In this document: piece after piece, positions 4,583-22,690 of the stretch | Layout of the letters: every line of letters begins with the position of its first letter | How positions within the stretch are numbered: position 1 is the stretch's first letter | NCBI GenBank assembly: GCA_040752355.1 | Contig: JBFMHE010000023.1 | Location: 1-32,000 of the forward strand | Length of the DNA: 32,000 nt | Source of the DNA: Nitrospirota bacterium | GTDB lineage: Bacteria > Nitrospirota > Thermodesulfovibrionia > Thermodesulfovibrionales > Dissulfurispiraceae | Direction of reading: 5' to 3' | Translations under genes and position numbers: made by a program | Notes under the pieces: model-generated | Told to the model about the DNA's origin: nothing | The model's input: the letters and a program-made list of their open reading frames with translations, nothing else | The model's database searches: none

Positions 4583-5281
4583 ATGTTGACGCTCAATTCT
4601 ATACACGCTTCATACGGCCCGATAAAGGCCATCGAGGACATCTCGATCGAGGTGCGGGCAGGCGAGATCGTTTGTCTCATCGGCAGCAACGGCGCCGGCA
4701 AAACCACGACGCTCATGACAATCTCGGGTATCGTCAGGCCGGATGCAGGGATGATCGTCCTGGAAGGAGAGGATATCGTCCGCCTGACCCCGGATGAGGT
4801 CGTGGAGCGGGGCATCTCCCAGGTGCCTGAGGGCAGGAGGATATTCCCCCGCCTTACGGTGCGCGAGAACCTCGAGATGGGAGCATTCCTCAGGGTGCGT
4901 GATTTCAAGAGGAATCTCGAAAGGGTGGTCACGCTCTTTCCCATCCTCAAGGACCGCCAGGATCAGTTGGGAGGGACCCTGAGCGGCGGAGAGCAGCAGA
5001 TGCTTGCGGTGGGAAGGGCGCTCATGGCGAGCCCGAAGCTCCTCCTGCTCGACGAGCCCTCACTCGGCCTCGCGCCTATCATGGTGAGCAAGATATTCAA
5101 GACCATAAAAGAGATCAACAGGGAGGGCGTCACCATCCTCCTCGTAGAGCAGAACGCGAAGGCGGCGCTTACGCTGTCGCACCGCGGCTACGTGCTCGAA
5201 AGCGGCCGTATCACGTTGCAGGGGAGCGGTTCAGACCTCCTGCACAGCGAGGCGGTGAGGAAGGCATATCTCGGGGAATAG
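4583..5281 (+). CDS. livF: Branched-chain amino acid ABC transporter ATP-binding protein (LivF family)
   Basis: Walker A GSNGAGKTT, signature LSGGEQQMLAVGRAL and Walker B LLLDEPSLGLAP. Confidence 0.92.
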   Translation: MLTLNSIHASYGPIKAIEDISIEVRAGEIVCLIGSNGAGKTTTLMTISGIVRPDAGMIVLEGEDIVRLTPDEVVERGISQVPEGRRIFPRLTVRENLEMGAFLRVRDFKRNLERVVTLFPILKDRQDQLGGTLSGGEQQMLAVGRALMASPKLLLLDEPSLGLAPIMVSKIFKTIKEINREGVTILLVEQNAKAALTLSHRGYVLESGRITLQGSGSDLLHSEAVRKAYLGE

Positions 5282-5710: not shown

Positions 5711-5990
5711 GCGTGCTCCATCCTTATTGATAGTCTCCTGAATTTCTTGTAGGCTTAGGTCAGATGCGGTGATCCTTGAGTGGTGAAAGTTTGCCCCCGT
5801 TGTGGCAAGGGCTATTCGGGACACCTCCCCTATTCTCATGGAGACAGGCCGAATAAACGAATTCGAAAGCCCGGAAAGTATCCGTGGGCCATTCTCTCTC
5901 CATGAGCTCACCGCACTATCTCTCCAGAAAAACATGTCCTTGCATGTGCTATGAATTTTATGTACGTAATAGTATTGCATGAGGTGCCCT

Positions 5991-6452
5991 ATGCCACGAG
6001 TGAAAGTTGATGAGGATATCAGGCCGATGTCGGAGGTCAGGACAGGAATCGCCTCTTTTCTCAAGAAGGTCCATGGGACCAAAAGGCCTCTGGTTATCAC
6101 GCAGCACGGCAAAGGTGTCGTTGTCTTGCTCGATGTGCGGGAGTACGAGGCCATGCAGGAGAAGATAGAGCTCCTGCAGGACATACAGACTTCGATCAGC
6201 CAGTTGGAAGGGGGAGCGGCCGCCTGGCGCCGGAGATCAATCATCACCATTTCAGAGAGTTGTTTTACGGCAATTACCGATTATTTACCGGATCGAGAAG
6301 AGGCAGGTTTCTATCCTCACGATCAGGCATGGCAAGCAGATAGTACCCGTAGATTAAGTCTCGAAATAACATTGCACGCGGGGTGCGCCCTGCTCCCTGT
6401 GAGCGTATGCTCCACAACACGAAGAGCCAGAGGGCCGATAAAGATTGTATAA
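5991..6452 (+). CDS. Phd/YefM-type antitoxin N-terminal domain with an aberrant read-through C-terminal tail
   Basis: Residues MSEVRTGIASFLKKVHGTKRPLVITQHGKGVVVLLDVREYEAMQEKIELLQDIQTSISQLEGG match the Phd/YefM fold pattern. A GAGGTG SD precedes the ATG at 5991. After about 80 aa the ORF continues about 75 aa through what is toxin sequence in other frames. Confidence 0.6.
   Translation: MPRVKVDEDIRPMSEVRTGIASFLKKVHGTKRPLVITQHGKGVVVLLDVREYEAMQEKIELLQDIQTSISQLEGGAAAWRRRSIITISESCFTAITDYLPDREEAGFYPHDQAWQADSTRRLSLEITLHAGCALLPVSVCSTTRRARGPIKIV
6251..6357 (+). pseudogene. ParE/RelE-family toxin remnant (C-terminal ~35 codons only, apparently frameshifted)
   Basis: My own translation gives FRELFYGNYRLF in the frame of nt 6251 and IYRIEKRQVSILTIRHGKQIVPVD* in the frame of nt 6283 (stop at 6355-6357). 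Joined across the T-run at 6284-6286, this reads GNYRLFYRIEKRQVSILTIRHGKQ, the typical ParE/RelE C-terminus. No toxin N-terminus is present. Confidence 0.55.
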
Positions 6453-6484: not shown

Positions 6485-6991
6485 GTGGGCGCTTCGTACA
6501 ACTATATAAACGATTTTCTGTACTTTGTGATAGAGCCCGATGAAAGCCGGGGGAAGGGGGCGTATATCTACTGCTCCGGGGCCGATATGTTCCGTTTCCT
6601 TCCCCTCACCAAGGGGCGGCACGGGCTGGCATCGAATTCGACTCTCCGGGGGCTCCAGCTGGTCAATCTCGGGATCAGGGACATGGCGCGCGAGAGGGGA
6701 GTGACGATAACGCCGCTCAAGGGAAATTGCGCGGAGTTCGCTCCCGGGGCGGGCGGATGGTATTCGGAGCGGCTGCTGATCGAGAACGCGCCGGATTCGT
6801 TTCCCGAGGAGATCCTTGCTTATGGCGTCATCAACCTCCTGAAGAAGATCGGCAAGGCCTGCATGCTCGACGACCCGATGCCCGATACGCTGCTCGAGCC
6901 GAAAGAGCTGCAGGCATTCATCGAGTCCCTGTGCGACAAATATCAAGGGAAGCATGACCTGAGATTCGTAGGAAAGAAGACCGCTCCTTGA
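6485..6991 (+). CDS. Hypothetical protein, no recognisable domain
   Basis: 168-aa ORF with a GTG start 5 nt after AAGGGGG. Composition is protein-like, whereas the antisense ORF 6464-6955 is Arg/Pro-rich. I recognised no motif. Confidence 0.5.
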   Translation: MGASYNYINDFLYFVIEPDESRGKGAYIYCSGADMFRFLPLTKGRHGLASNSTLRGLQLVNLGIRDMARERGVTITPLKGNCAEFAPGAGGWYSERLLIENAPDSFPEEILAYGVINLLKKIGKACMLDDPMPDTLLEPKELQAFIESLCDKYQGKHDLRFVGKKTAP

Positions 6992-7042: not shown

Positions 7043-8059
7043 TTAGGGAATAATCGCGTATTTTATTCCCTGGCCCTTCGACAGCTTCTCGAGCGCTGCA
7101 GGAAGCCCCTCCAGGGGATAGCTGCCGCTGATGAGCGGCGCAACACGGATCGTCCCTCCGGTCAGCAACTCATACGCTTTCTTCACATCCCGCGGGGTGA
7201 AGTGAAAGACCCCTTTCAGCGTCAACTCGTCGTAGTGCAGCCGGTAGGTGTCGTAGGTTGCTACCGTGCCCTGTTTCACGCCGCCGAAGAGGACGACCGT
7301 GCCCCCGCGGCGTACGTAATCGACGGAGGACTCCCAGACATCGATCTGGCCGGTGCACTCGAACACCGTATCGACGCCGAGGCCGTTGGTGTACTCCGGG
7401 ATAAAACTCTTGAGCCCGGAGGGGAGGATGGCGGCGTCGGCGCGCAGCTGCTTTGCGAGGTCGAGCCGCTCCTGTTCGAGGCCGGTGATGACGACCGTCG
7501 CCCCCTTCTGCTTCAGCAGGAGCAGGTGCAGGAGGCCGATCGGGCCGGTGCCGATGACCAGCACGGTGTCGCCTCTTCTGATCTCGACTCCCTGCATGCC
7601 GTGGACCACGCAGGAGAGCGGTTCGAGGAATGCCGCCTCCTCGAAGCTGAGGTGAGGCGGCTTGTGGAAGAGATTCTGTTGTGCGATGTGAGAGGGGAGG
7701 AGTATATACTCGGCGAAGGCGCCCATGACCTTCGAGGTCATGATATTTTCGCAGAGATTGAAGAGCTCCTTCCGGCAGTACCGGCAGGCGAGACAGGGCG
7801 CGCTATGGACCGCCATGATCTCGTCGCCGGACTTGAATTCCGTTACGCCCTCGCCTGTCTTTGCGACGACTCCTGAAAACTCGTGCCCGCAGACACCGGG
7901 CATGGGGATCATCGGGTGGCCTCTCAGATAGGCCTTCAGATCGGTGCCGCAGGTGAGGGCGGCCCTGACCTTGATGAGAACCTCTTCCTTCCCCGGCTCG
8001 GGGACAGGGACCTCCCGCAGTTCGAGAGAGCCCGGCTTTACCAGATAGCTTGCGCGCAT
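7043..8059 (-). CDS. Zn-dependent alcohol dehydrogenase, MDR family (threonine/sorbitol dehydrogenase-like)
   Basis: GHEFSGVV catalytic-Zn motif, structural-Zn cysteines CLACRYCRKELFNLC and Rossmann VIGTGPIGLL. Start taken at MRASYLVKPG (ATG at 8059), not the upstream extension of the ORF track. Confidence 0.88.
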   Translation of the reverse strand: MRASYLVKPGSLELREVPVPEPGKEEVLIKVRAALTCGTDLKAYLRGHPMIPMPGVCGHEFSGVVAKTGEGVTEFKSGDEIMAVHSAPCLACRYCRKELFNLCENIMTSKVMGAFAEYILLPSHIAQQNLFHKPPHLSFEEAAFLEPLSCVVHGMQGVEIRRGDTVLVIGTGPIGLLHLLLLKQKGATVVITGLEQERLDLAKQLRADAAILPSGLKSFIPEYTNGLGVDTVFECTGQIDVWESSVDYVRRGGTVVLFGGVKQGTVATYDTYRLHYDELTLKGVFHFTPRDVKKAYELLTGGTIRVAPLISGSYPLEGLPAALEKLSKGQGIKYAIIP

Positions 8060-8137
8060 ATAGCTGAAGTATAGTGGAATTCCCTGCGACAGTGCAATGT
8101 GCTCCGCCCCTTTTACACCGCTCTCCGAATTTTTTTC

Positions 8138-8167
8138 TTGACACCGAAAGGTAAGAACCTTTAGAAT
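8138..8167 (+). promoter_or_regulatory. Sigma70-like promoter: TTGACA, 18-nt spacer, TAGAAT
   Basis: TTGACA at 8138-8143 and TAGAAT at 8162-8167, 32 nt upstream of the cytochrome c start codon. Confidence 0.6.
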
Positions 8168-8181
8168 GAGACACAGTCTCA
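8167..8181. promoter_or_regulatory. Palindromic operator candidate TGAGACACAGTCTCA (TGAGA-N5-TCTCA), copy 1
   Basis: 15-bp inverted repeat that shares its first T with the -10 hexamer. The same TGAGA-N5-TCTCA pattern is present at 8713-8727 and 17041-17055. Confidence 0.6.
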
Positions 8182-8198
8182 AAAATAAGGAGGATTCG

Positions 8199-8657
8199 AT
8201 GAGCAAAACGTTTCTCGCCGTAATGAGCAGTCTCTTCTTCTTTTCACTGGTCTCTGCCGCATGGTCCGAAGAGGTGACCTACCGGAAACATATCAAGCCG
8301 GTCGTCGATGCCAAGTGCGCCGGCTGCCACGGCAAGGAGGCCGCTCCCGAATACTACGCCTTCAAGGAAGAGAAGGACAAGTGGCTCGCCAAGGGGCAGG
8401 GGATGCGGATGGACACCTACAGCCACCTGATTTTTTACACCGCCTGGCCCGACACCGGTGCCCTCATGCGCAGGCTTGATGACGGGAAAGGCTCCAAGGA
8501 AGGCAAGCAAGGCAACATGTACCAGTATCTCGGCGCAACCGAGGAAGAGCGGCAGCAGAACCTGAAGCTCTTCAAGGAGTGGGTCGGCAACTGGACATTG
8601 AAGCGGTGGAAGGATATCACCAAAGAGGATATGAACGGGATCAAAGTAACGTACTGA
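8199..8657 (+). CDS. Secreted monoheme c-type cytochrome (PSCyt1-like haem motif)
   Basis: Signal peptide MSKTFLAVMSSLFFFSLVSAAWS and a single CxxCH within HIKPVVDAKCAGCHG, which resembles the planctomycete cytochrome C (PSCyt1) motif. AAGGAGG lies 6 nt upstream of the ATG at 8199. The track start at 8166 lies inside the operator. Confidence 0.8.
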   Translation: MSKTFLAVMSSLFFFSLVSAAWSEEVTYRKHIKPVVDAKCAGCHGKEAAPEYYAFKEEKDKWLAKGQGMRMDTYSHLIFYTAWPDTGALMRRLDDGKGSKEGKQGNMYQYLGATEEERQQNLKLFKEWVGNWTLKRWKDITKEDMNGIKVTY

Positions 8658-8668
8658 TCTTCCGGGGA

Positions 8669-8702
8669 GAGGGGCGGGGCACTGTCTCGTCCCTCTTTTT
8701 TT
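8669..8702 (+). terminator. Rho-independent terminator after the cytochrome c gene
   Basis: GAGGGGCGGG (8669-8678) pairs with CTCGTCCCTC (8686-8695) as 10 bp including 2 G-U pairs. The loop is 7 nt, followed by seven T (8696-8702). Confidence 0.7.
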
Positions 8703-8712
8703 GGCCTACTGA

Positions 8713-8727
8713 TGAGAAGCAGTCTCA
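8713..8727. promoter_or_regulatory. Palindromic operator candidate TGAGAAGCAGTCTCA (TGAGA-N5-TCTCA), copy 2
   Basis: Lies 19 nt upstream of the first DUF2325-like gene's ATG, immediately after the terminator. No strong -35/-10 was seen here. Confidence 0.5.
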
Positions 8728-8746: not shown

Positions 8747-9043
8747 ATGTGTATCGCGCTGATCGGCGGCATGGACAGGCTTGAGCGGCATTACAGAAGC
8801 GAGGCAGAGAGCTTCGGCGTAGACCTTAAAGTGTTTACCACATCCGAGAACGATATCACTGCCAAGGTCAGGCATATGGATGCATTGGTGATTTTTACCA
8901 ATAAAGTCTCACACAGGGTAAAAAGAGAGGTGATGAGTGTCGCGCGAGCAAAGAGTATCCCCGTTTTCCTGTATCACTCATGCGGGGTCTGCACCCTGCG
9001 TGACTGCCTCGCTTGTCTGAAAAATCCGAAGCAGGAGGTGTGA
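8747..9043 (+). CDS. DUF2325-like small cytoplasmic protein with a C-terminal CxxC-x4-CxxC
   Basis: MCIALIGGMDRLERHY...DALVIFTNKVSHRVKREV...IPVFLYHS matches my recollection of the DUF2325 pattern. The C-terminus reads SCGVCTLRDCLACL. An AAGGAGGG SD is present. Confidence 0.65.
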   Translation: MCIALIGGMDRLERHYRSEAESFGVDLKVFTTSENDITAKVRHMDALVIFTNKVSHRVKREVMSVARAKSIPVFLYHSCGVCTLRDCLACLKNPKQEV

Positions 9044-9045
9044 TC

Positions 9046-9327
9046 ATGTCTGCGATTGTTTTAAGCGGCGTGGAGAAGCTTGTAACCATGTCCCCGGTAC
9101 TCGAGAAGATCGGCATCAAAAACATCCATTTTTTCAACGCGCGCAATAACGATGAGCTGAGCACTCCACTCGTTGCGCTGGTCCCGTTCGTGGATGCGGT
9201 GGTGTTGGGAGAGGACGCTCATTTCTCGCCTCATATACACAGGCTTATTGATGAGGCGCTTGCACGGCATATCCCGGTCGTCGCGGAGAGTTGCATTAAT
9301 GAAATTGAATACCTTTTCAAGAATTGA
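9046..9327 (+). CDS. Divergent DUF2325-like paralogue lacking the Cys cluster
   Basis: Starts 2 nt after the previous stop, with an AGGAGGTG SD. AIVLSGVEKL...VDAVVLGEDAHFSPHIHRLIDEA...IPVVAES aligns positionally with the upstream protein. Confidence 0.5.
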   Translation: MSAIVLSGVEKLVTMSPVLEKIGIKNIHFFNARNNDELSTPLVALVPFVDAVVLGEDAHFSPHIHRLIDEALARHIPVVAESCINEIEYLFKN

Positions 9328-9403
9328 AACATGGAATGATCGTGTAGCGAGGAGGACAAGGAATTGTTTCAATTCTATTCAGATAGCAATAGGAGGAAAG
9401 GGA

Positions 9404-10177
9404 ATGCTTAAGAAGGGATTATTAATCGCTGCGCTGCTGCTCATTATGAGTAACGTCGCGACGGCTAAGGATATCTTAATTACCAATGATACAGGCACGC
9501 AAGGAAAAGGCCATCTGCTTGTTGAGGTTAACAGCGAGTTTTCTTTTGACGAGGAAAGCGCTGATGGCGTTACCACAAAAGAGTCGGGGATAGAGTTCGA
9601 GTCGATATTTTCTTATGGGCTTGCGGAGAACATAGATTTCATTGTTGCGTTGCCCTATGCCTGGAACAAGGTCAAGGAGGACGGGGTCACCATACAGAAA
9701 GAAGAGGGCATTTCCGATGTAGGGCTGGAGCTAAAGTGGAGATTTTATGAAAAAGACGGACTGAGCTTTGCCCTGAAGCCGGGTATTTCGCTCCCCACCG
9801 GTGATGATGAAAAGGGACTCGGAGCCGGAAGAGCAGCATATGGCATCTTCTTCATTACGACGAAAGAGGTCCAGCCCCTCTTATTTCATCTGAATCTTGC
9901 CTACACGAGAAACGAGAACAAGGTCGACGAGAGAAAAGATATCTGGTACGCCTCCCTTTCGGGAGAGGTGGAGCTCATTAAAAAGCTCACGTTCATCGGC
10001 AACGTGGGAGTGCAGACGAATACCGATCCCGCGTCGGGCAGTCCGCCTGCCTTCATTCTCGGCGGCTTTAACTATGAGGTCACCGATGCTTTTTCGGTTA
10101 ATGCCGGCATCAAGGGAGGCCTCACCAGGGCCGAAACCGATTACGCCGTCCTTACCGGTCTAGCGTGGCGGTTCTAA
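9404..10177 (+). CDS. Outer-membrane beta-barrel protein (transporter / MetA-pathway phenol-degradation-like family)
   Basis: Signal peptide MLKKGLLIAALLLIMSNVATA, alternating beta-strand pattern, an LPTGDDEKGLGAG motif and the terminal ...GLAWRF (C-terminal Phe typical of outer-membrane proteins). An AGGAGGAAAG SD is present. Confidence 0.75.
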   Translation: MLKKGLLIAALLLIMSNVATAKDILITNDTGTQGKGHLLVEVNSEFSFDEESADGVTTKESGIEFESIFSYGLAENIDFIVALPYAWNKVKEDGVTIQKEEGISDVGLELKWRFYEKDGLSFALKPGISLPTGDDEKGLGAGRAAYGIFFITTKEVQPLLFHLNLAYTRNENKVDERKDIWYASLSGEVELIKKLTFIGNVGVQTNTDPASGSPPAFILGGFNYEVTDAFSVNAGIKGGLTRAETDYAVLTGLAWRF

Positions 10178-10194
10178 AAAAAGGAGGAGCGGAT

Positions 10195-10476
10195 ATGATG
10201 CCTCTCGGTCTTTTGAGCGCCGGGGAGACGGCGGAGGTGGTGGAAGTGCGCGGTCAGCACCAGGCGGGCCAGTGCTGTGCTGCGGAGAGCAAGTCCGGGT
10301 CGTGCAGCCAGACCTGCAGGATAGAGGATATGGGGCTCCGTGCCGGCAAGGTCATCGAGATGCTGAGCAACGGCGGACAAGGAGCCTTGCTGGTAAAGGT
10401 CGACGAGACCCGGCTGGCCATCGGCCGCGGCATGGCGATGAAAGTAATGGTAAGAAGATTAGCGTTCAGCAGTTAG
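10195..10476 (+). CDS. feoA: FeoA-domain protein with a Cys-rich insertion
   Basis: FeoA core MPLGLLSAGETAEVVEV...IEDMGLRAGKVIEMLSNGGQGALLVKVDETRLAIGRGMAMKVMV is interrupted by GQHQAGQCCAAESKSGSCSQTC. An AAGGAGGAG SD is present. The stop codon lies inside repeat copy 2. Confidence 0.8.
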   Translation: MMPLGLLSAGETAEVVEVRGQHQAGQCCAAESKSGSCSQTCRIEDMGLRAGKVIEMLSNGGQGALLVKVDETRLAIGRGMAMKVMVRRLAFSS

Positions 10477-10557: not shown

Positions 10558-10785
10558 ATGAATCTGGCGAAGTTGAAGCCCGGAGAGAGAGGGCGCATTA
10601 CGCATATCGGCGTCACCGGCCCGTTGAAGAGGAGGCTCATGGACATGGGCGTGCTCGTCGGCGAGGAGGTCAGGGTCGAGAAGGTCGCTCCGCTGGGAGA
10701 TCCCATCGAGGTGACTATTAAAAATTATAACCTCTCGCTCAGGAAGAAAGAGGCTGAGGGAATTGCGGTGGAGGTGGCAGGATGA
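10558..10785 (+). CDS. feoA: FeoA (canonical, 75 aa)
   Basis: LAKLKPGERGRITHIGVTGPLKRRLMDMGVLVGEEVRVEKVAPLGDPIEVTIKNYNLSLRKKEAEGIAV is a standard FeoA SH3-like sequence. Its stop overlaps the feoB start (ATGA). Confidence 0.92.
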   Translation: MNLAKLKPGERGRITHIGVTGPLKRRLMDMGVLVGEEVRVEKVAPLGDPIEVTIKNYNLSLRKKEAEGIAVEVAG

Positions 10786-13013
10786 GCACAGCCGTTCGCA
10801 GCAAGGAGACAGGGACCGGGAGCGAAAGACCGCGGCTTAAAGCTCAAAGCCAAAAGACCATTACCGTTGCGGTCGCCGGCAACCCGAACTCCGGCAAATC
10901 GACGCTCATCAATGCCATCGCCGGCACGCGGCTCCATGTGGGCAACTGGCCGGGCGTGACCGTCGAGAAGAAAGAGGCGCTGTTCGACTATGAGGGCACG
11001 AAGATCAAACTGGTCGACCTCCCCGGCACCTACAGCCTCAGCCCCTACACGCAGGAGGAGATCATCGCCCGCGATTATCTCGTGCATGAGACGCCCGATG
11101 CGATCATCAACGTGGTCGATGCGACGAACCTCGAGAGGAATCTCTACCTGACGGTCCAGCTCCTGGAGCTCGGCATTCCCGTTGTCCTCGCCCTCAATAT
11201 TTACGACGAGGCCGAGCAGAAAGGGTATACGATCGATGTGCGGGCGATGGAAGCACTGCTGGGCGTTGCCGTCATCCCCACGGTGGCGACGAAGAAGAGG
11301 GGTCTGAGCGATGTGATGAGGACCGCGATCGAGAGCGCTGAAAAGCCGCAGCAGCACCGGCCGAAGCGCCTCAACTACGGCGATGACATAGAGGCTGCGG
11401 CCAGGGGAGTGGAAGAGCAGATGAACCGCATCCATCCCGCTCTCATCGAGCGGTATCCCGCACGCTGGCTTGCGCTGAAGCTGATGGAAGGGGACAGCCA
11501 TGTTCGCAAAGAGATCAATACCGGCAGCAGCGGCTTCATCGGCGAGGCGGTGAGGCATCTCAAGGAGGCCCACGGCGATGATATCGAGTCCCTTATGGCG
11601 GACATGCGGTACGCACAGGCAGCAGGCCTGACCCGCGAGGTCATGAAGAGGCCCGACATACGGAAGATGGAGCTTACCGAGAAGATCGACAGGGTAGTCC
11701 TCAACAGGTTCCTCGGCATCCCCCTCTTCCTCGCTGCCATGTGGCTGGTATTCAAGCTTACCTTTGACGTATCGACCCCCTTCGTCGACTGGATCGACGC
11801 CATGACCGCAGGGCCGTTCAAGCGATGGGCAGAGGCGCTCCTGGGCGCATTGAACGCCCCTGCATGGACGGCATCACTGGCAACGGACGGCATTATTGCC
11901 GGAGTGGGGTTTGTCCTTGTCTTCGTGCCGGTCATCTTCGCCATGATGTTTTTCATTACGTTTCTTGAGGGCAGCGGCTACATGGCGCGGGCTGCCTTTG
12001 TCATGGACCGGGCGATGCACGCCATCGGGCTGCACGGCAAGTCGTTCATCCCGATGCTGCTCGGTTTCGGCTGCAACGTGCCTGCCATCTATGCAACGAG
12101 GACCCTCGAGAATCCGCGGGACAAGGCGCTCACCGCACTGCTCATCCCCCTCATGTCCTGCGGCGCGCGCCTTCCGGTATATGTGCTCTTTGTCGGCGTG
12201 TTCTTCTCGGCCAATGCGGGAACGGTGCTCTGGTCGCTGTACGTACTGGGCATTGTACTTGCCGTGGTTATGGGAAGTATCTTCAAAAGGACGCTCTTCA
12301 AAGGGGAGTCGCCGATGTTCATCATGGAGCTCCCGCCGTACCGTATGCCCTCCTTCAGGAGCCTCATGATCCACACCTGGGAAAAGGGAAAGCATTTTCT
12401 GATAAAGGCCGGCACGTATATCCTCGCGGTCTCGATCTTCGTATGGTTTCTCCTCAATCTGCCGTGGGGCGTGGAGCACAAGAAAGACTCCTACCTCGGC
12501 AAGGCCGGACAGGTGATCGCTCCTGCGCTGAGCCCTCTCGGGTTCGGCAATTGGGAGGCGGCGTCCTCATTGATCACCGGGATCATCGCAAAAGAGATCG
12601 TGGTCGGCACCATGGGAGAGATCTACGCTGTCACAAGTGGGGATGAAGAGAGGACGGAAATCCCTACGCTGACGGATGACCTCAAGGAGATCGGGACCTC
12701 TTTTGCGGGGGCGGTCAGGGACTCGGCGGCCAACGTGATCTCGACCTTCGGCATAGCGAGCATATCCGCGGAGGAGGATGAAGAGCAGAGGCCGCTGCGA
12801 TCGGTTGTTCAAGGCGCGTTCAGTCCGCTCTCCGCCTATGCGTTCATGACGTTTGTGCTTCTTTATATGCCCTGCGTCATTGTCGCCATAGCCATGCGGC
12901 AGGAGTTCGGCACCTGGAAGTGGTTCGGCATCGCCTTTGCGTACCAGACAGTGCTGGCGTGGGGTGCCGCGTTTGTGATCTACCAGGGCGGAAGGCTGTT
13001 GGGGCTCGAGTAA
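10782..13013 (+). CDS. feoB: Ferrous iron transporter FeoB (743 aa)
   Basis: N-terminal G-domain with GNPNSGKST, DLPGTYSL and NIYD, followed by a polytopic membrane domain with the gate-motif region. Confidence 0.95.
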   Translation: MSTAVRSKETGTGSERPRLKAQSQKTITVAVAGNPNSGKSTLINAIAGTRLHVGNWPGVTVEKKEALFDYEGTKIKLVDLPGTYSLSPYTQEEIIARDYLVHETPDAIINVVDATNLERNLYLTVQLLELGIPVVLALNIYDEAEQKGYTIDVRAMEALLGVAVIPTVATKKRGLSDVMRTAIESAEKPQQHRPKRLNYGDDIEAAARGVEEQMNRIHPALIERYPARWLALKLMEGDSHVRKEINTGSSGFIGEAVRHLKEAHGDDIESLMADMRYAQAAGLTREVMKRPDIRKMELTEKIDRVVLNRFLGIPLFLAAMWLVFKLTFDVSTPFVDWIDAMTAGPFKRWAEALLGALNAPAWTASLATDGIIAGVGFVLVFVPVIFAMMFFITFLEGSGYMARAAFVMDRAMHAIGLHGKSFIPMLLGFGCNVPAIYATRTLENPRDKALTALLIPLMSCGARLPVYVLFVGVFFSANAGTVLWSLYVLGIVLAVVMGSIFKRTLFKGESPMFIMELPPYRMPSFRSLMIHTWEKGKHFLIKAGTYILAVSIFVWFLLNLPWGVEHKKDSYLGKAGQVIAPALSPLGFGNWEAASSLITGIIAKEIVVGTMGEIYAVTSGDEERTEIPTLTDDLKEIGTSFAGAVRDSAANVISTFGIASISAEEDEEQRPLRSVVQGAFSPLSAYAFMTFVLLYMPCVIVAIAMRQEFGTWKWFGIAFAYQTVLAWGAAFVIYQGGRLLGLE

Positions 13014-13638: not shown

Positions 13639-14055
13639 TTACGCTCTCCTGATCACCATGAGCCTCATCGCCAGGGTACGGCTGATAGCCAGCCGGGCGC
13701 CATCCACCTTTACCACCAGAGCCCCTTTGCCGTCGTTGCTCAGCATCTCGACGATCGTGCCGGCACGGAGGCCCAATCCCTCCATCCTGCAGACAAGACT
13801 GTCCGGTTCCGGTGCACTGCTGCCACTCGTGCACGGCTTGAGCACTGCTCCGCCGGGCAGCTGCCGTATCTCTGCCCGCGCTCCCGGCTGTAAAAGGCCG
13901 AGGGGCATGCCTCCAGCCTGCTCTCCTGCCGGAAGGGCGCCATCGTCCCCTTTGAGGCCCGGATAGCCGACCGCGGGGTCGCCTGATCCTCTCTTTATGC
14001 CGGCATCGAGGCCGAAAGAGTCAATTATGGTGGGATTTTCTGCTGCTTTTCTCAT
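13639..14055 (-). CDS. feoA: FeoA-domain protein with a Cys-containing insertion and a possible Gly-rich N-terminal extension
   Basis: MPLGLLQPGARAEIRQL..KPCTSGSSAPEPDSLVCRMEGLGLRAGTIVEMLSNDGKGALVVKVDGARLAISRTLAMRLMV is a paralogue of the 10195-10476 product. The alternative start at 13908 has a poorly spaced SD, while the ATG at 14055 has GAGG 5 nt upstream. Confidence 0.75.
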   Translation of the reverse strand: MRKAAENPTIIDSFGLDAGIKRGSGDPAVGYPGLKGDDGALPAGEQAGGMPLGLLQPGARAEIRQLPGGAVLKPCTSGSSAPEPDSLVCRMEGLGLRAGTIVEMLSNDGKGALVVKVDGARLAISRTLAMRLMVIRRA

Positions 14056-14187: not shown

Positions 14188-14469
14188 CTACGCTGGAGGT
14201 GCCTTATTGTTGGAAGGGGATTTTGATACGGATAAAAAGGAAGACGTGTACGGCTGAAAGACGATGGTCCTTATTTCATGGCAGTTGAGGAGGATAGTGC
14301 TGTCCGCTGCTATGGCGCTGGCGAGGTGGGACGACACTTTGCAGAGAGGGCAATTCCTCTGAACTGTTCTGCCCTCATGGTTGTCGAAAGAGACGGCGGC
14401 AGCAGTGAGGAGCAGAAGTATCGCACAGAGGAGGGAGAGCTGTCTCGAGAACCGTTCGGGTAATAACAT
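14188..14469 (-). CDS. Small signal-anchored protein with a CPLC motif (hypothetical, vaguely DUF2946-like)
   Basis: The 93-aa ORF reads MLLPERFSRQLSLLCAILLLLTAAAVSF...NCPLCKVSSHLASAI. A consensus promoter ends 5 nt before its ATG. Confidence 0.45.
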   Translation of the reverse strand: MLLPERFSRQLSLLCAILLLLTAAAVSFDNHEGRTVQRNCPLCKVSSHLASAIAADSTILLNCHEIRTIVFQPYTSSFLSVSKSPSNNKAPPA

Positions 14470-14474
14470 ACTGT

Positions 14475-14503
14475 ATTCTAAGAGGCAGGTTGCTGTTTGT
14501 CAA
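14475..14503 (-). promoter_or_regulatory. Consensus sigma70-like promoter: TTGACA, 17-nt spacer, TAGAAT (minus strand)
   Basis: The reverse complement of 14498-14503 is TTGACA and that of 14475-14480 is TAGAAT. The ATG at 14469 follows after 5 nt, which implies a leaderless or near-leaderless transcript. Confidence 0.6.
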
Positions 14504-14540: not shown

Positions 14541-15005
14541 TTAATGCGATTTAATGTTGTGATGCGAAGCGGTCTTGCCCGTGTCGCCGCCGCAGGTGCT
14601 GCAGTACCCGAAGATTTCGAGGCTATGCCTCACCTTCTTGAACTTCTCCTTCTGGCAGAGCTCGTCCTGCAGCATCTCGAGGGTAGGGGAAAAGAACTCG
14701 ATGACCTTGCCGCACTTGATGCAGATCATATGGTCGTGATGGGCCTCCTCCGACACGCGCTCGTAGTGCGCATGCTTGTCGATCCGCTCGACCTCCTCGA
14801 TGAAGCCGCACTCGATGAGGAGGGGGATTGTCCGGTACACCGAGGCGCGGGACACCTTCGAGCCTTTCGTCTTGAGCCTGACGAAGAGCTCCTCGGGGTC
14901 GAAGTGGCCCTTGATGCTCATGATCTCGTCGATGATCTCGTCACGCCCCTTGGTGGCTTTGAGCCCCTTGGTGCAGAGGAACTCTCTGAACTTCTCCTTT
15001 GGCAT
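14541..15005 (-). CDS. fur: Fur-family transcriptional regulator
   Basis: Winged-helix segment SRASVYRTIPLLIECGFI, metal-site HHDHMICIKCGKVIEF and a second CxxC (CSTCGG). A GGGGGAGGTG SD is present, and the gene lies 17 nt downstream of feoB. Confidence 0.9.
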   Translation of the reverse strand: MPKEKFREFLCTKGLKATKGRDEIIDEIMSIKGHFDPEELFVRLKTKGSKVSRASVYRTIPLLIECGFIEEVERIDKHAHYERVSEEAHHDHMICIKCGKVIEFFSPTLEMLQDELCQKEKFKKVRHSLEIFGYCSTCGGDTGKTASHHNIKSH

Positions 15006-15022: not shown

Positions 15023-17002
15023 CTATAGTGCGACATTGAAATAACGCAGCAACCAGTTCAGTGCCCCGCCGAAGAGAAAGGCGAGGGGAAAAACGATGCC
15101 GATGACCCAGAGGGTCGTCTTCAAGCCCCGCTCTTTGATGATCATGAAGAAGCTGGCGAGGCAGGGAATGAACAGCGTTATGGTGACGAGACTCACCAGC
15201 GCCTGTATCGGCGTGAGCAGACCGTCCTCGAAGAGCTTGAAGAGTCCTGCCGCACCGTAATCCCTCCGCAGGAAGCCGAGGATGAAGGACTCCGTCGTCT
15301 TCTCGGGAAGGCCGAGGAGCGTAACGACGACGGGCGAGGCGATCTCCTGGAGCATCGCGATGAGATTCAGCTTATGGAGCAGGAAGAGGATGAGGGTGCC
15401 GAGGATGAAGAGCGGCACCGCCTCTTTCAGATACCACTCGATCCTGCCGAGGGTCTTTACGAGGATGTTGCCGATATTGGGCATACGGATCGGCGGTATC
15501 TCGAGGAAGAACTCGGTCCTCTCCCCGGGAACGAGCTTCGAGGCGAGGAAGCCCGAGATGAAGAGGATGACGATGATGCTGCTCATCCAGATGACGGCCG
15601 CTTTGAGCGAGAGCGCCCCCAATATGCCGAGGATGACTCCCAGCTGCGCCGAGCAGGGGATCGCGAGCGCGAGGAGAAAGGTCGTGATGATCCGGTCCCT
15701 CCTGGTCTCGAGGATACGCGAGGTCATGACCGCCATGGTGCCGCAGCCGAGGCCCAGGATCATCGGCAGCACCGCCTTGCCGTTGAGCCCCATGACATTG
15801 AAGACCCGGTTGCTCATGATGGCGAGCCGCGGGAGATAGCCGCTGTCCTCGAGGAGAGAGAAGGCGATGAAGAAGGTCGCAGTAATGGGCAGGATAATCG
15901 CGATCGCATAGGTGAGGGCGACCGTAATCAGCCCGTACTCTCCGACGAGCAGCTCCTGAACAATACCGATGGGAATCAGAAGCTGCACCACCTTGGTCGC
16001 CATCGGATTGATGTAGCCGTTGAAGAGCGTCTCCTCGAAGAAATCGACGAGCGTGCCGGCCCCGAAGACGCCGACGAACTGGTAGATGCCGTAGAGCACG
16101 CCGAGCAGGAGCGGAATGCCGTAGAGCGGATGCATGCTGATCCTGCCGATGAGGGCGAGGAGCTTGCCTCCCTCCGGCCCCGCTTTTCTGACGACGCTCC
16201 CGACGATCGCTTCCGCTGCCTCGATGCGGGCCTTGTTTATCACGTAGCCTGCCGGCTCTTTCATCGCGAGCTTGCATTCGTCGCGGAGCGCTTCTATTTC
16301 GAGGAGGGCGGCCTCTTTGAGATTGCTTTTCAGCCAGTCCCGCAGGCTCTCGTCTTCGGAAAGGACCATCACCGCAAGGGACCGCTGCGAGACGGCAGCG
16401 GAGGGGAGCAGCCGCCCGATCTTTTCGATATAGTCCTCGATGACCGGGTGATAGGTGATCCGGACCGTCGGCCTCCCGGGCGAGAGCATGGATTCCCGCA
16501 GCTCCTTGATCCCTTTACGCTGCGGGGCGATGGTGCTCACCACATTGATGCCGAGCATCTGCTTAAGCCGCTCGGTATCGATGGTAATGCCCTTGTCCAT
16601 CGCCTCATCGACCATGTTCAGGTCGAGGACGATCGGAATGCCCATCTCGGCGAGCTGGAGGGTTATCATGAGGGTCCTCTTGAGATTTTTTGCGTCCCCT
16701 ACCTGCACCACGGCCGAGGGGGCCTCGGTCAGGAGGATATCCCGCGTCACCTTCTCGTCCTCGCTCATGGGGATGAGGCTGTTGACGCCGGGGGTATCGA
16801 CGAGGACGAGACGTTTACCGTCGAGGGCGATATTGCCCTGGGTGATCTCGACGGTCGTCCCCGGGTAATTGGACACGGTCACGTACTTGCCGGTGAGGAG
16901 GCCGAAAATAACGCTCTTGCCCACGTTGGGATTGCCGATGAGCGCAATTTTCTCGAGCTCGCCGTGCTGCTTCTTCGCCTTTACCGCTGCTGCCTCTGCT
17001 TT
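15023..17002 (-). CDS. feoB: Ferrous iron transporter FeoB, second copy (~660 aa)
   Basis: G-domain with GNPNVGKSV, DTPGVNSL and NMVD, plus a polytopic membrane domain. I prefer the TTG at 17002, which has AGGAGG 4 nt upstream. The maximal ORF reaches 17056, but that TTG would sit at or upstream of the predicted transcription start. Confidence 0.9.
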   Translation of the reverse strand, partial: KAEAAAVKAKKQHGELEKIALIGNPNVGKSVIFGLLTGKYVTVSNYPGTTVEITQGNIALDGKRLVLVDTPGVNSLIPMSEDEKVTRDILLTEAPSAVVQVGDAKNLKRTLMITLQLAEMGIPIVLDLNMVDEAMDKGITIDTERLKQMLGINVVSTIAPQRKGIKELRESMLSPGRPTVRITYHPVIEDYIEKIGRLLPSAAVSQRSLAVMVLSEDESLRDWLKSNLKEAALLEIEALRDECKLAMKEPAGYVINKARIEAAEAIVGSVVRKAGPEGGKLLALIGRISMHPLYGIPLLLGVLYGIYQFVGVFGAGTLVDFFEETLFNGYINPMATKVVQLLIPIGIVQELLVGEYGLITVALTYAIAIILPITATFFIAFSLLEDSGYLPRLAIMSNRVFNVMGLNGKAVLPMILGLGCGTMAVMTSRILETRRDRIITTFLLALAIPCSAQLGVILGILGALSLKAAVIWMSSIIVILFISGFLASKLVPGERTEFFLEIPPIRMPNIGNILVKTLGRIEWYLKEAVPLFILGTLILFLLHKLNLIAMLQEIASPVVVTLLGLPEKTTESFILGFLRRDYGAAGLFKLFEDGLLTPIQALVSLVTITLFIPCLASFFMIIKERGLKTTLWVIGIVFPLAFLFGGALNWLLRYFNVAL

Positions 17003-17040
17003 CAAAACGCCTCCTGCAGGAATCCGGGAACGCAATCCAG

Positions 17041-17091
17041 TGAGAATAAATCTCAATTACAATTGTAGAAAAGGTACGATGATTTAATCAA
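17041..17091 (-). promoter_or_regulatory. Promoter (TTGATT, 18-nt spacer, TACAAT) plus operator candidate TGAGAATAAATCTCA (copy 3) upstream of feoB-fur
   Basis: On the minus strand, -35 is at 17086-17091 and -10 at 17062-17067. The palindrome at 17041-17055 starts 6 nt downstream of the -10. It has the 7-1-7 layout of Fur-family boxes. Confidence 0.6.
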
Positions 17092-22648: not shown

Positions 22649-22690
22649 CCGGGGCAGGTGAAGCTGAGAGAGAATCTCTATCTGCCCCGG
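22649..22690 (+). other. Nested hairpin in the ftsH-folP spacer
   Basis: CCGGGGCAG (22649-22657) pairs with CTGCCCCGG (22682-22690). Inside is TGAGAGAGAATCTCT (22665-22679), containing AGAGA-A-TCTCT. No T-tract follows. Confidence 0.5.

Follow-up and report, generated by a model that had tools for sequence, protein, structure and literature searches.

The 32,000-nt stretch of Nitrospirota DNA analyzed here (the window) carries three exact copies of a 15-bp palindrome, TGAGA-N5-TCTCA, upstream of iron-acquisition genes and fur (pccH, DUF2325-porin-feoA-feoA-feoB, and feoB-fur), and these copies are very probably boxes bound by the Fur protein encoded at 14541-15005, through which the iron-uptake operons would be shut off. 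On the basis of their 7-1-7 layout, a sequence-only reading of this DNA had proposed the palindromes as operators of the local Fur-family regulator. This proposal receives strong comparative support from the observed sequences, from where they lie with respect to promoters, from how well they are conserved and from the way they co-vary with Fur clades, as well as from a weight matrix derived independently from other genomes and a precedent in Geobacter.

An exact search of the window placed TGAGANNNNNTCTCA at 8167-8181 (box 1, TGAGACACAGTCTCA), 8713-8727 (box 2, TGAGAAGCAGTCTCA) and 17041-17055 (box 3, TGAGAATAAATCTCA) and nowhere else (n = 3), in agreement with the sequence-only reading. Its chance expectation of ~0.03 copies was likewise reproduced (mean 0.03), with none of 100 dinucleotide-preserving shuffles yielding three. 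Allowing one mismatch added two sites to the window, namely the near-match already pointed out at 22665-22679 (TGAGAGAGAATCTCT), located between ftsH and folP, and one overlooked at the time, at 16318-16332 (TGAGATTGCTTTTCA), located within the feoB coding sequence, where it overlaps a plus-strand hairpin resembling a terminator. All three exact copies fit a 15- to 19-bp inverted repeat of 7-1-7 layout with TGA...TCA ends, and none of them shows evidence of a further 7-1-7 unit overlapping the first with a 6-bp offset. Fifteen sites from relatives give the consensus TTGAGATTAAATCTCAA, and the perfect version, TGAGAAT-T-ATTCTCA, is present in one of the relatives' loci (L013). At inner positions 6-7, box 1 (CA/AG) and box 2 (AG/AG) are farther from this A/T-rich consensus than box 3.

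Box 1 is associated with pccH (8199-8657, plus strand), the gene for a monoheme periplasmic cytochrome c (Pfam PF22297, E = 2e-58), next to a minus-strand zinc alcohol dehydrogenase gene (7043-8206; Pfam and NCBIfam scans). The pccH promoter at 8138-8167 (plus strand) is of the sigma-70 type (TTGACA-18-TAGAAT, scoring 11/12 in the promoter scan), and the final T of its -10 hexamer doubles as the opening T of box 1, which thus shares a base with TAGAAT, as previously claimed, and overlaps the region of the pccH transcription start. Box 3, read on the minus strand from 17055 to 17041, starts 6 nt past the -10 of the feoB-fur promoter (17062-17091, minus strand; TTGATT-18-TACAAT from 17091 to 17062, scoring 9/12) and leaves 35 nt between its end and the TTG start codon of feoB; here, too, the minus-strand promoter scan bore out the spacing given earlier. 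Both boxes consequently overlap or abut the core promoter, taken as -35 to about +20. The two genes of the feoB-fur operon are feoB (15023-17005, minus strand; identified by Pfam, with the 660-aa gene call taken from L073, the same stretch in another assembly) and, directly after it, fur (14541-15005, minus strand), which encodes the proposed repressor.

Box 2 lies downstream of a terminator-like hairpin with a T-run that follows pccH (8676-8702, plus strand; terminator scan), and it ends at 8727, 19 nt before the ATG (8747) of the DUF2325 gene, precisely the distance reported before. No sigma-70-like promoter was recognized around it in the promoter scan. The operon that follows, entirely on the plus strand, begins with the gene for the DUF2325 protein (8747-9043; Pfam PF10087, E = 1e-25), which adjoins pccH in 14 loci, and continues with a small conserved ORF of 93 aa (9046-9327; tblastn homologs in L002 and L019, no match in NCBIfam) and a gene for a porin-like outer-membrane protein of the Phenol_MetA_deg family (9404-10177; Pfam PF13557), which has a signal-peptide-like start at ORF residue 78 and is kept in at least 12 loci. 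Downstream are feoA (10165-10476; Pfam PF04023), a second feoA (10558-10785; NCBIfam ferrous iron transporter A, E = 3e-11) and feoB, encoding a ferrous iron transporter (10782-13013; Pfam FeoB_N, Gate and FeoB_C).

Several other features of the locus deserve mention. The kilobase 9001-10000, containing the small ORF and the porin gene, has a G+C content of 48% vs. 55-63% in the adjacent kilobases. Just 5′ of the iron locus, an ORF with a Phd/YefM-type antitoxin domain (5979-6452) is followed by a 168-aa ORF lacking a Pfam match (6485-6991), and the two may form a toxin-antitoxin pair. The 485-nt gap past fur contains a near-consensus promoter (14475-14503, minus strand; TTGACA-17-TAGAAT, 11/12) with no Fur box, and directly after it a minus-strand ORF of 93 aa with a hydrophobic N-terminus (14188-14469), for which we found no family match and no homolog in the fetched loci except L073, i.e. 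the same stretch. Farther downstream, the minus strand encodes a 138-aa protein with a C-terminal FeoA domain and a 50-residue N-terminus without assignment (13639-14055). As the DNA of its FeoA part is 76% complementary to feoA at 10314-10465 (plus strand), it looks like a diverged FeoA paralog.

Scanning a genome collection with PccH returned 35 loci with a full-length homolog, mainly from metagenome-assembled genomes (MAGs) of Nitrospirota, Syntrophaceae, Geobacter and others. In 17 of these, a TGAxA-N5-TxTCA motif occurs within 100 nt upstream of pccH, against 0.30 expected from the rate of the motif elsewhere in the same loci (binomial p = 3e-24). The regions inspected reveal a common layout, in which cTTGACA is followed after about 17-18 nt by a TATAAT-like hexamer and by a box that abuts or overlaps this hexamer. 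In nine other loci, the interval separating pccH from the DUF2325 gene holds a second box, 440-540 nt past the pccH start; in relatives, this box is immediately preceded by a hairpin and T-run and lies a short distance 5′ of the DUF2325 ribosome-binding site. Lineage variation among the pccH boxes is confined to base 4 of the half-site and its mirror position. This base is G in L001, L004, L007, L012, L013, L018 and L033 (in one arm only in L033), T in L002, L003, L005, L011, L015, L016 and L020, and A in the Geobacter locus L025 (one arm only), the pccH boxes of Geobacter being of the TGAAA type.

Two TGAGA-type palindromes in L010 were dropped, as they fall within a stretch whose minus strand holds a long reading frame, open to the end of the locus and apparently encoding a sensor kinase. 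In a cultured relative, Thermodesulfovibrio sp. N1 (L021), the sequence ATGAGAATTTTGGATTCTCTT is found about 60 nt upstream of pccH, its TGAGAAT and ATTCTCT arms being 5 nt apart rather than 1, which may reflect altered spacing or decay of a box.

Metagenome scanning with the Fur protein returned only three loci, and relatives of the feoB-fur operon were therefore fetched singly (L077, L079, L081, L082, L083 and L084; Fur 66-84% identical). The window Fur is 100% identical to an NCBI protein attributed to a Nitrospirota MAG, and Fur relatives of 65-85% identity are named as Nitrospirota, Thermodesulfovibrionales or Dissulfurispiraceae. A TGAGAT-type box precedes feoB-fur in all six fetched relatives, visibly 3′ of a -10-like hexamer in L077, L079, L081 and L082, with TCTCA, TCGCA or TTGCA as its second arm; TGCGA variants occur in relatives of the window. 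The six have in common a divergent arrangement of an amidase gene and feoB-fur, and in L083 a porin-feoA-feoA-feoB operon is inserted between the amidase gene and feoB. In this Dissulfurispiraceae MAG, porin-feoA-feoA-feoB and feoB-fur diverge from one 350-nt region (4688-4982), where TGAGA boxes, two of them strong (20.6 and 19.1 bits) and a third weaker, make up a compact version of the regulon.

To rank sites in the window, a weight matrix was built from seven sites upstream of pccH, all from other genomes. The three palindromes came out on top, with box 3 scoring 24.1 bits, the highest value in the window, followed by box 1 (19.2 bits) and box 2 (18.7 bits); next were hits at 16317 (13.7 bits) and 22664 (10.7 bits). 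For comparison, a similar matrix of 15 sites gave an average maximum of 10.2 bits in shuffled windows. The same seven-site matrix selected the site upstream of feoB as its top match in L077, L079, L081, L082, L083 and L084, narrowly so in L077 (10.7 vs. 10.4 bits), and ranked a putative feoB-proximal site third in L074. Boxes are kept at orthologous promoters while their flanks diverge. The two one-mismatch sites of the window, at 16318 (13.7 bits) and 22665 (10.7 bits), had no counterpart among the relatives' top matches; they were not retained as boxes and are probably chance matches.

The product of 14541-15005 contains a Fur domain (PF01475, residues 13-131, E = 3e-32), as expected of a protein joining an N-terminal winged helix to a C-terminal dimerization domain, and a PDB sequence search, in which Fur structures came first, identified the Fur of Magnetospirillum gryphiswaldense (4RAZ/4RB1; E = 2e-24 to 4RAZ) as its closest solved structure. 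Aligning the two proteins matched Lys16, Tyr57 and Arg58 with the DNA-contacting residues Lys15, Tyr56 and Arg57 of Magnetospirillum. The two regulatory metal sites of the latter involve eight ligands (His33, Glu81, His88, His90; His87, Asp89, Glu108, His125), every one of which is kept in the window Fur, as His34, Glu82, His88-His89-Asp90-His91, Glu110 and His127. The division of these ligands into site 1 and site 2 draws partly on general background on Fur, the source for the structure naming only H33/H90 and E108/H125. The window Fur also has two CxxC pairs, which hint at a structural zinc site. Among NCBIfam models, those for Fur matched best, at 97.9, 73 and 70.9 bits, with PerR (56) and Zur (45) scoring lower, and none reached its equivalog cut-off (146-220 bits), so that assignment to the Fur subfamily rests on the ligands and the gene context. 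The suggestion in the sequence-only reading of a paralog with a different metal or redox specificity gains no support from the complete ligand set, the best NCBIfam matches and the feoAB targets.

The crystal structure of Magnetospirillum Fur on DNA also bears on the TGAGA half-site, as readout there is limited to a guanine contacted by Arg57, one or two thymines contacted by Tyr56, and a narrow A/T minor groove contacted by Lys15. TGAGAAT keeps the G of TGA, the thymines and inner positions rich in A/T, so that altering position 4 would be compatible with this structure, disturbing none of the contacts seen in it.

Within Nitrospirota, the base at position 4 follows the type of Fur encoded nearby. 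All nine loci with a Fur of the window clade have TGAGA boxes (the window, L007, L074, L077, L079 and L081-L084), and all five with a distant Fur, 34-39% identical to that of the window and encoded directly upstream of pccH, have TGATA boxes (L006, L009, L010, L019, L022), both before fur and after pccH (Fisher p = 5e-4, a value that ignores phylogeny and reflects essentially one evolutionary split). The recognition helix reads SRASVYRTIPLL (S-R-A-S-V-Y-R) in six of the seven aligned Furs of the window clade, and SRASVYRTINLL in L007; its counterpart in the distant clade is G[Y/F/Q]ATV[Y/H/Q]R. At the start of this helix, Arg53 of the window Fur corresponds to isoleucine or leucine in the Fur proteins of Magnetospirillum and E. 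coli. Conceivably, then, two diverged Nitrospirota clades divide recognition by a single base pair, with Arg53 reading the extra guanine, although we regard this as rather unlikely. Were it true, and were both clades to occur in one genome, they would constitute a natural specificity switch insulating two Fur regulons. As an observation on its own, the distant clade is encoded within a fur-pccH operon in other Nitrospirota MAGs, its gene lying ~600 nt upstream of pccH, and in some of its members His or Gln replaces the DNA-contacting Tyr.

The existence of this second clade bears on the alternative that another Fur-family paralog encoded elsewhere in the genome, such as Zur, PerR, Mur or a second Fur, is the protein that uses the palindromes. 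Related Nitrospirota do carry the distant Fur in a fur-pccH operon, only 32 kb of the genome are in view, and in Bacillus subtilis the boxes of the paralogs Fur, PerR and Zur differ from each other at just one or two half-site positions. However, the second clade is paired with TGATA rather than TGAGA in five of five loci, and in every relative examined a TGAGA box precedes the window clade's own feoB-fur operon, a pattern of autoregulation. The targets, moreover, are ferrous-iron transporters and not zinc or peroxide genes, and the best NCBIfam matches of the local protein are to Fur, not to PerR or Zur. We thus consider action of a different paralog improbable.

Still less probable is a function of the palindromes as hairpins in RNA or DNA (attenuator, terminator or processing site) or as sites for regulators outside the Fur family (CRP/FNR or DtxR/IdeR type). 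The arms are able to pair, with predicted energies of -3.8 to -6.1 kcal/mol, and the change from G/C to T/A at position 4 stays symmetric across lineages, both of which a hairpin would accommodate. Yet the stems are short (5-6 bp) and lack a T-run, box 1 begins inside the -10 and would be transcribed only in part, and Rfam at gathering thresholds gave no match in the window. Asymmetric boxes in relatives (TGAGA...TCGCA, TGAGA...TTGCA) would, in addition, break the pairing but fit the TG[A/C]GA degeneracy of Caulobacter sites. As to other regulators, CRP/FNR sites are of even length (5-N6-5 or 5-N4-5) and the odd-length 7-1-7 arrangement is that of Fur, and we know of no likeness of the boxes to the DtxR/IdeR box. 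Finally, chance or remnants of a dispersed repeat can be effectively discarded: intergenic DNA is more A/T-rich than the window as a whole (60% G+C), which makes such palindromes somewhat likelier than the shuffles suggest, but no shuffle produced three copies, a repeat search of the window detected no extended repeat around the sites, and the boxes are kept at orthologous positions in many genomes with diverged flanks.

Returning to recognition by the local Fur, the TGAGA half-site is an already documented variant of the Fur box, and no new kind of element, as is evident from Caulobacter sites and the Anabaena FurA consensus. The Fur site list of Caulobacter crescentus, for which 11 sites confirmed in gel shifts supplied the motif, includes ATTGAGAACCATTCTCAAA, TTTGAGAATGGTTCTCAAT and AATGAGAACAGCTCTCAAC, all of them exact instances of TGAGA-N5-TCTCA (da Silva Neto et al. 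2009, PMC2724300). This 'Fur-alpha box' has the same half-site (TG[A/C]GAA) and the same spacing as the boxes of the window, and the degeneracy between TGAGA and TGCGA is identical in Caulobacter sites and in Nitrospirota relatives. Differences lie in the Caulobacter consensus, which prefers TGCGAAC and is G/C-richer inside, whereas the inner positions of the window type are A/T-rich (TGAGAwT); in the regulon, which in Caulobacter, unlike in the window, takes in activated respiratory genes; and in phylogeny, Caulobacter belonging to the Alphaproteobacteria and the window to the Nitrospirota. While the closest Fur in the PDB is likewise alpha-proteobacterial (Magnetospirillum), this is no evidence of orthology with the Caulobacter-type Fur. 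The Anabaena FurA consensus, AAATAAATTCTCAATAAAT (Gonzalez et al. 2014, PMC4005646), contains ATTCTCA, the reverse complement of TGAGAAT, but mostly as a single half-site in very A/T-rich DNA and, in contrast to the window, without a clean palindrome. The sequence-only reading had also considered a lineage-specific box; this holds insofar as G at position 4 is peculiar to the window Fur clade among the Nitrospirota loci examined, but not beyond, given its occurrence in Caulobacter and Anabaena. In the literature collection consulted, nothing relevant turned up on Fur boxes of Nitrospirota, Thermodesulfovibrio or Leptospirillum.

In gene content, the closest precedent is the predicted dFUR box, WTGAAAATNATTTTCAW, of Geobacter, Desulfuromonas and Desulfovibrio (Rodionov et al. 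2004, PMC545781). In G. sulfurreducens, predicted boxes precede genX-genY, porin-feoA-feoA-feoB2, feoB1 and fur, genX being of the cytochrome c family, and according to the same authors, microarray data obtained under iron limitation confirmed the dFUR prediction (PMC545781). From the Pfam name and the gene context, we infer genX to be the counterpart of pccH. The Geobacter regulon and the window have the same gene set and gene order, and their boxes the same length and 7-1-7 symmetry. They differ in position 4 of the half-site, which is A in dFUR and G in the window, and in fur, which in Geobacter has its own box and in the window is the second gene of feoB-fur.

The classical box of E. coli, B. 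subtilis and P. aeruginosa, TGATAAT-N-ATTATCA, shares with the window boxes the overall architecture, the TGA...TCA ends and the A/T-rich inner positions; the window boxes depart from it by one base pair in each half-site (T4 to G, A12 to C). It is likewise located over the -10/+1 region of iron-uptake promoters, and the classical Fur contacts, in which Arg recognizes the G of TGA, Tyr meets thymines and Lys inserts into the minor groove, appear to be matched by residues kept in the window Fur. Other Nitrospirota pccH promoters bear the exact classical TGATAAT form.

For the window, we infer Fur binding, its dependence on iron and repression as its outcome from what is typical of the family. 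Each 15-bp core, lying within a 7-1-7 repeat (wTGAGAwT-N-AwTCTCAw), would be bound by one Fur dimer, and with Fe2+ plentiful, the metal-loaded protein would occupy the boxes. At box 1 it would cover the end of the -10 and the pccH start site, and at box 3 the positions from +1 to about +15 of feoB-fur, blocking RNA polymerase in either case. The mode of action at box 2 is less certain, since a recognizable sigma-70 promoter is missing there; Fur might occlude a weak internal promoter or prevent transcription from reading through the pccH terminator. Under iron scarcity, Fur would come off the DNA, enabling expression of both Feo transporters, the porin, PccH and Fur itself, and the position of box 3 upstream of feoB-fur would imply fur autoregulation.

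PccH is better known from the cathode biofilms of Geobacter and from electron uptake there. Across loci of Nitrospirota, Geobacter and other MAGs, pccH is followed by the DUF2325 and porin genes and often by feoA/feoB, and about half of them have a Fur box upstream.

Apart from its Nitrospirota host, the locus would represent an ordinary, routine arrangement of repressor and operators. Its only mildly novel aspect is that the position-4 base tracks two Fur clades in one phylum, accompanied by a clade-specific arginine, which could amount to a specificity switch. What the window does provide is a usable Fur-box model, wTGAGAwT-N-AwTCTCAw, for uncultured Nitrospirota of the Thermodesulfovibrionia type, making their iron regulons predictable from metagenomes. 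The wiring of PccH to Fur and feoAB across several phyla, i.e. its linkage to DUF2325, porin and feo genes together with the Fur boxes, suggests that this cytochrome serves in iron acquisition.
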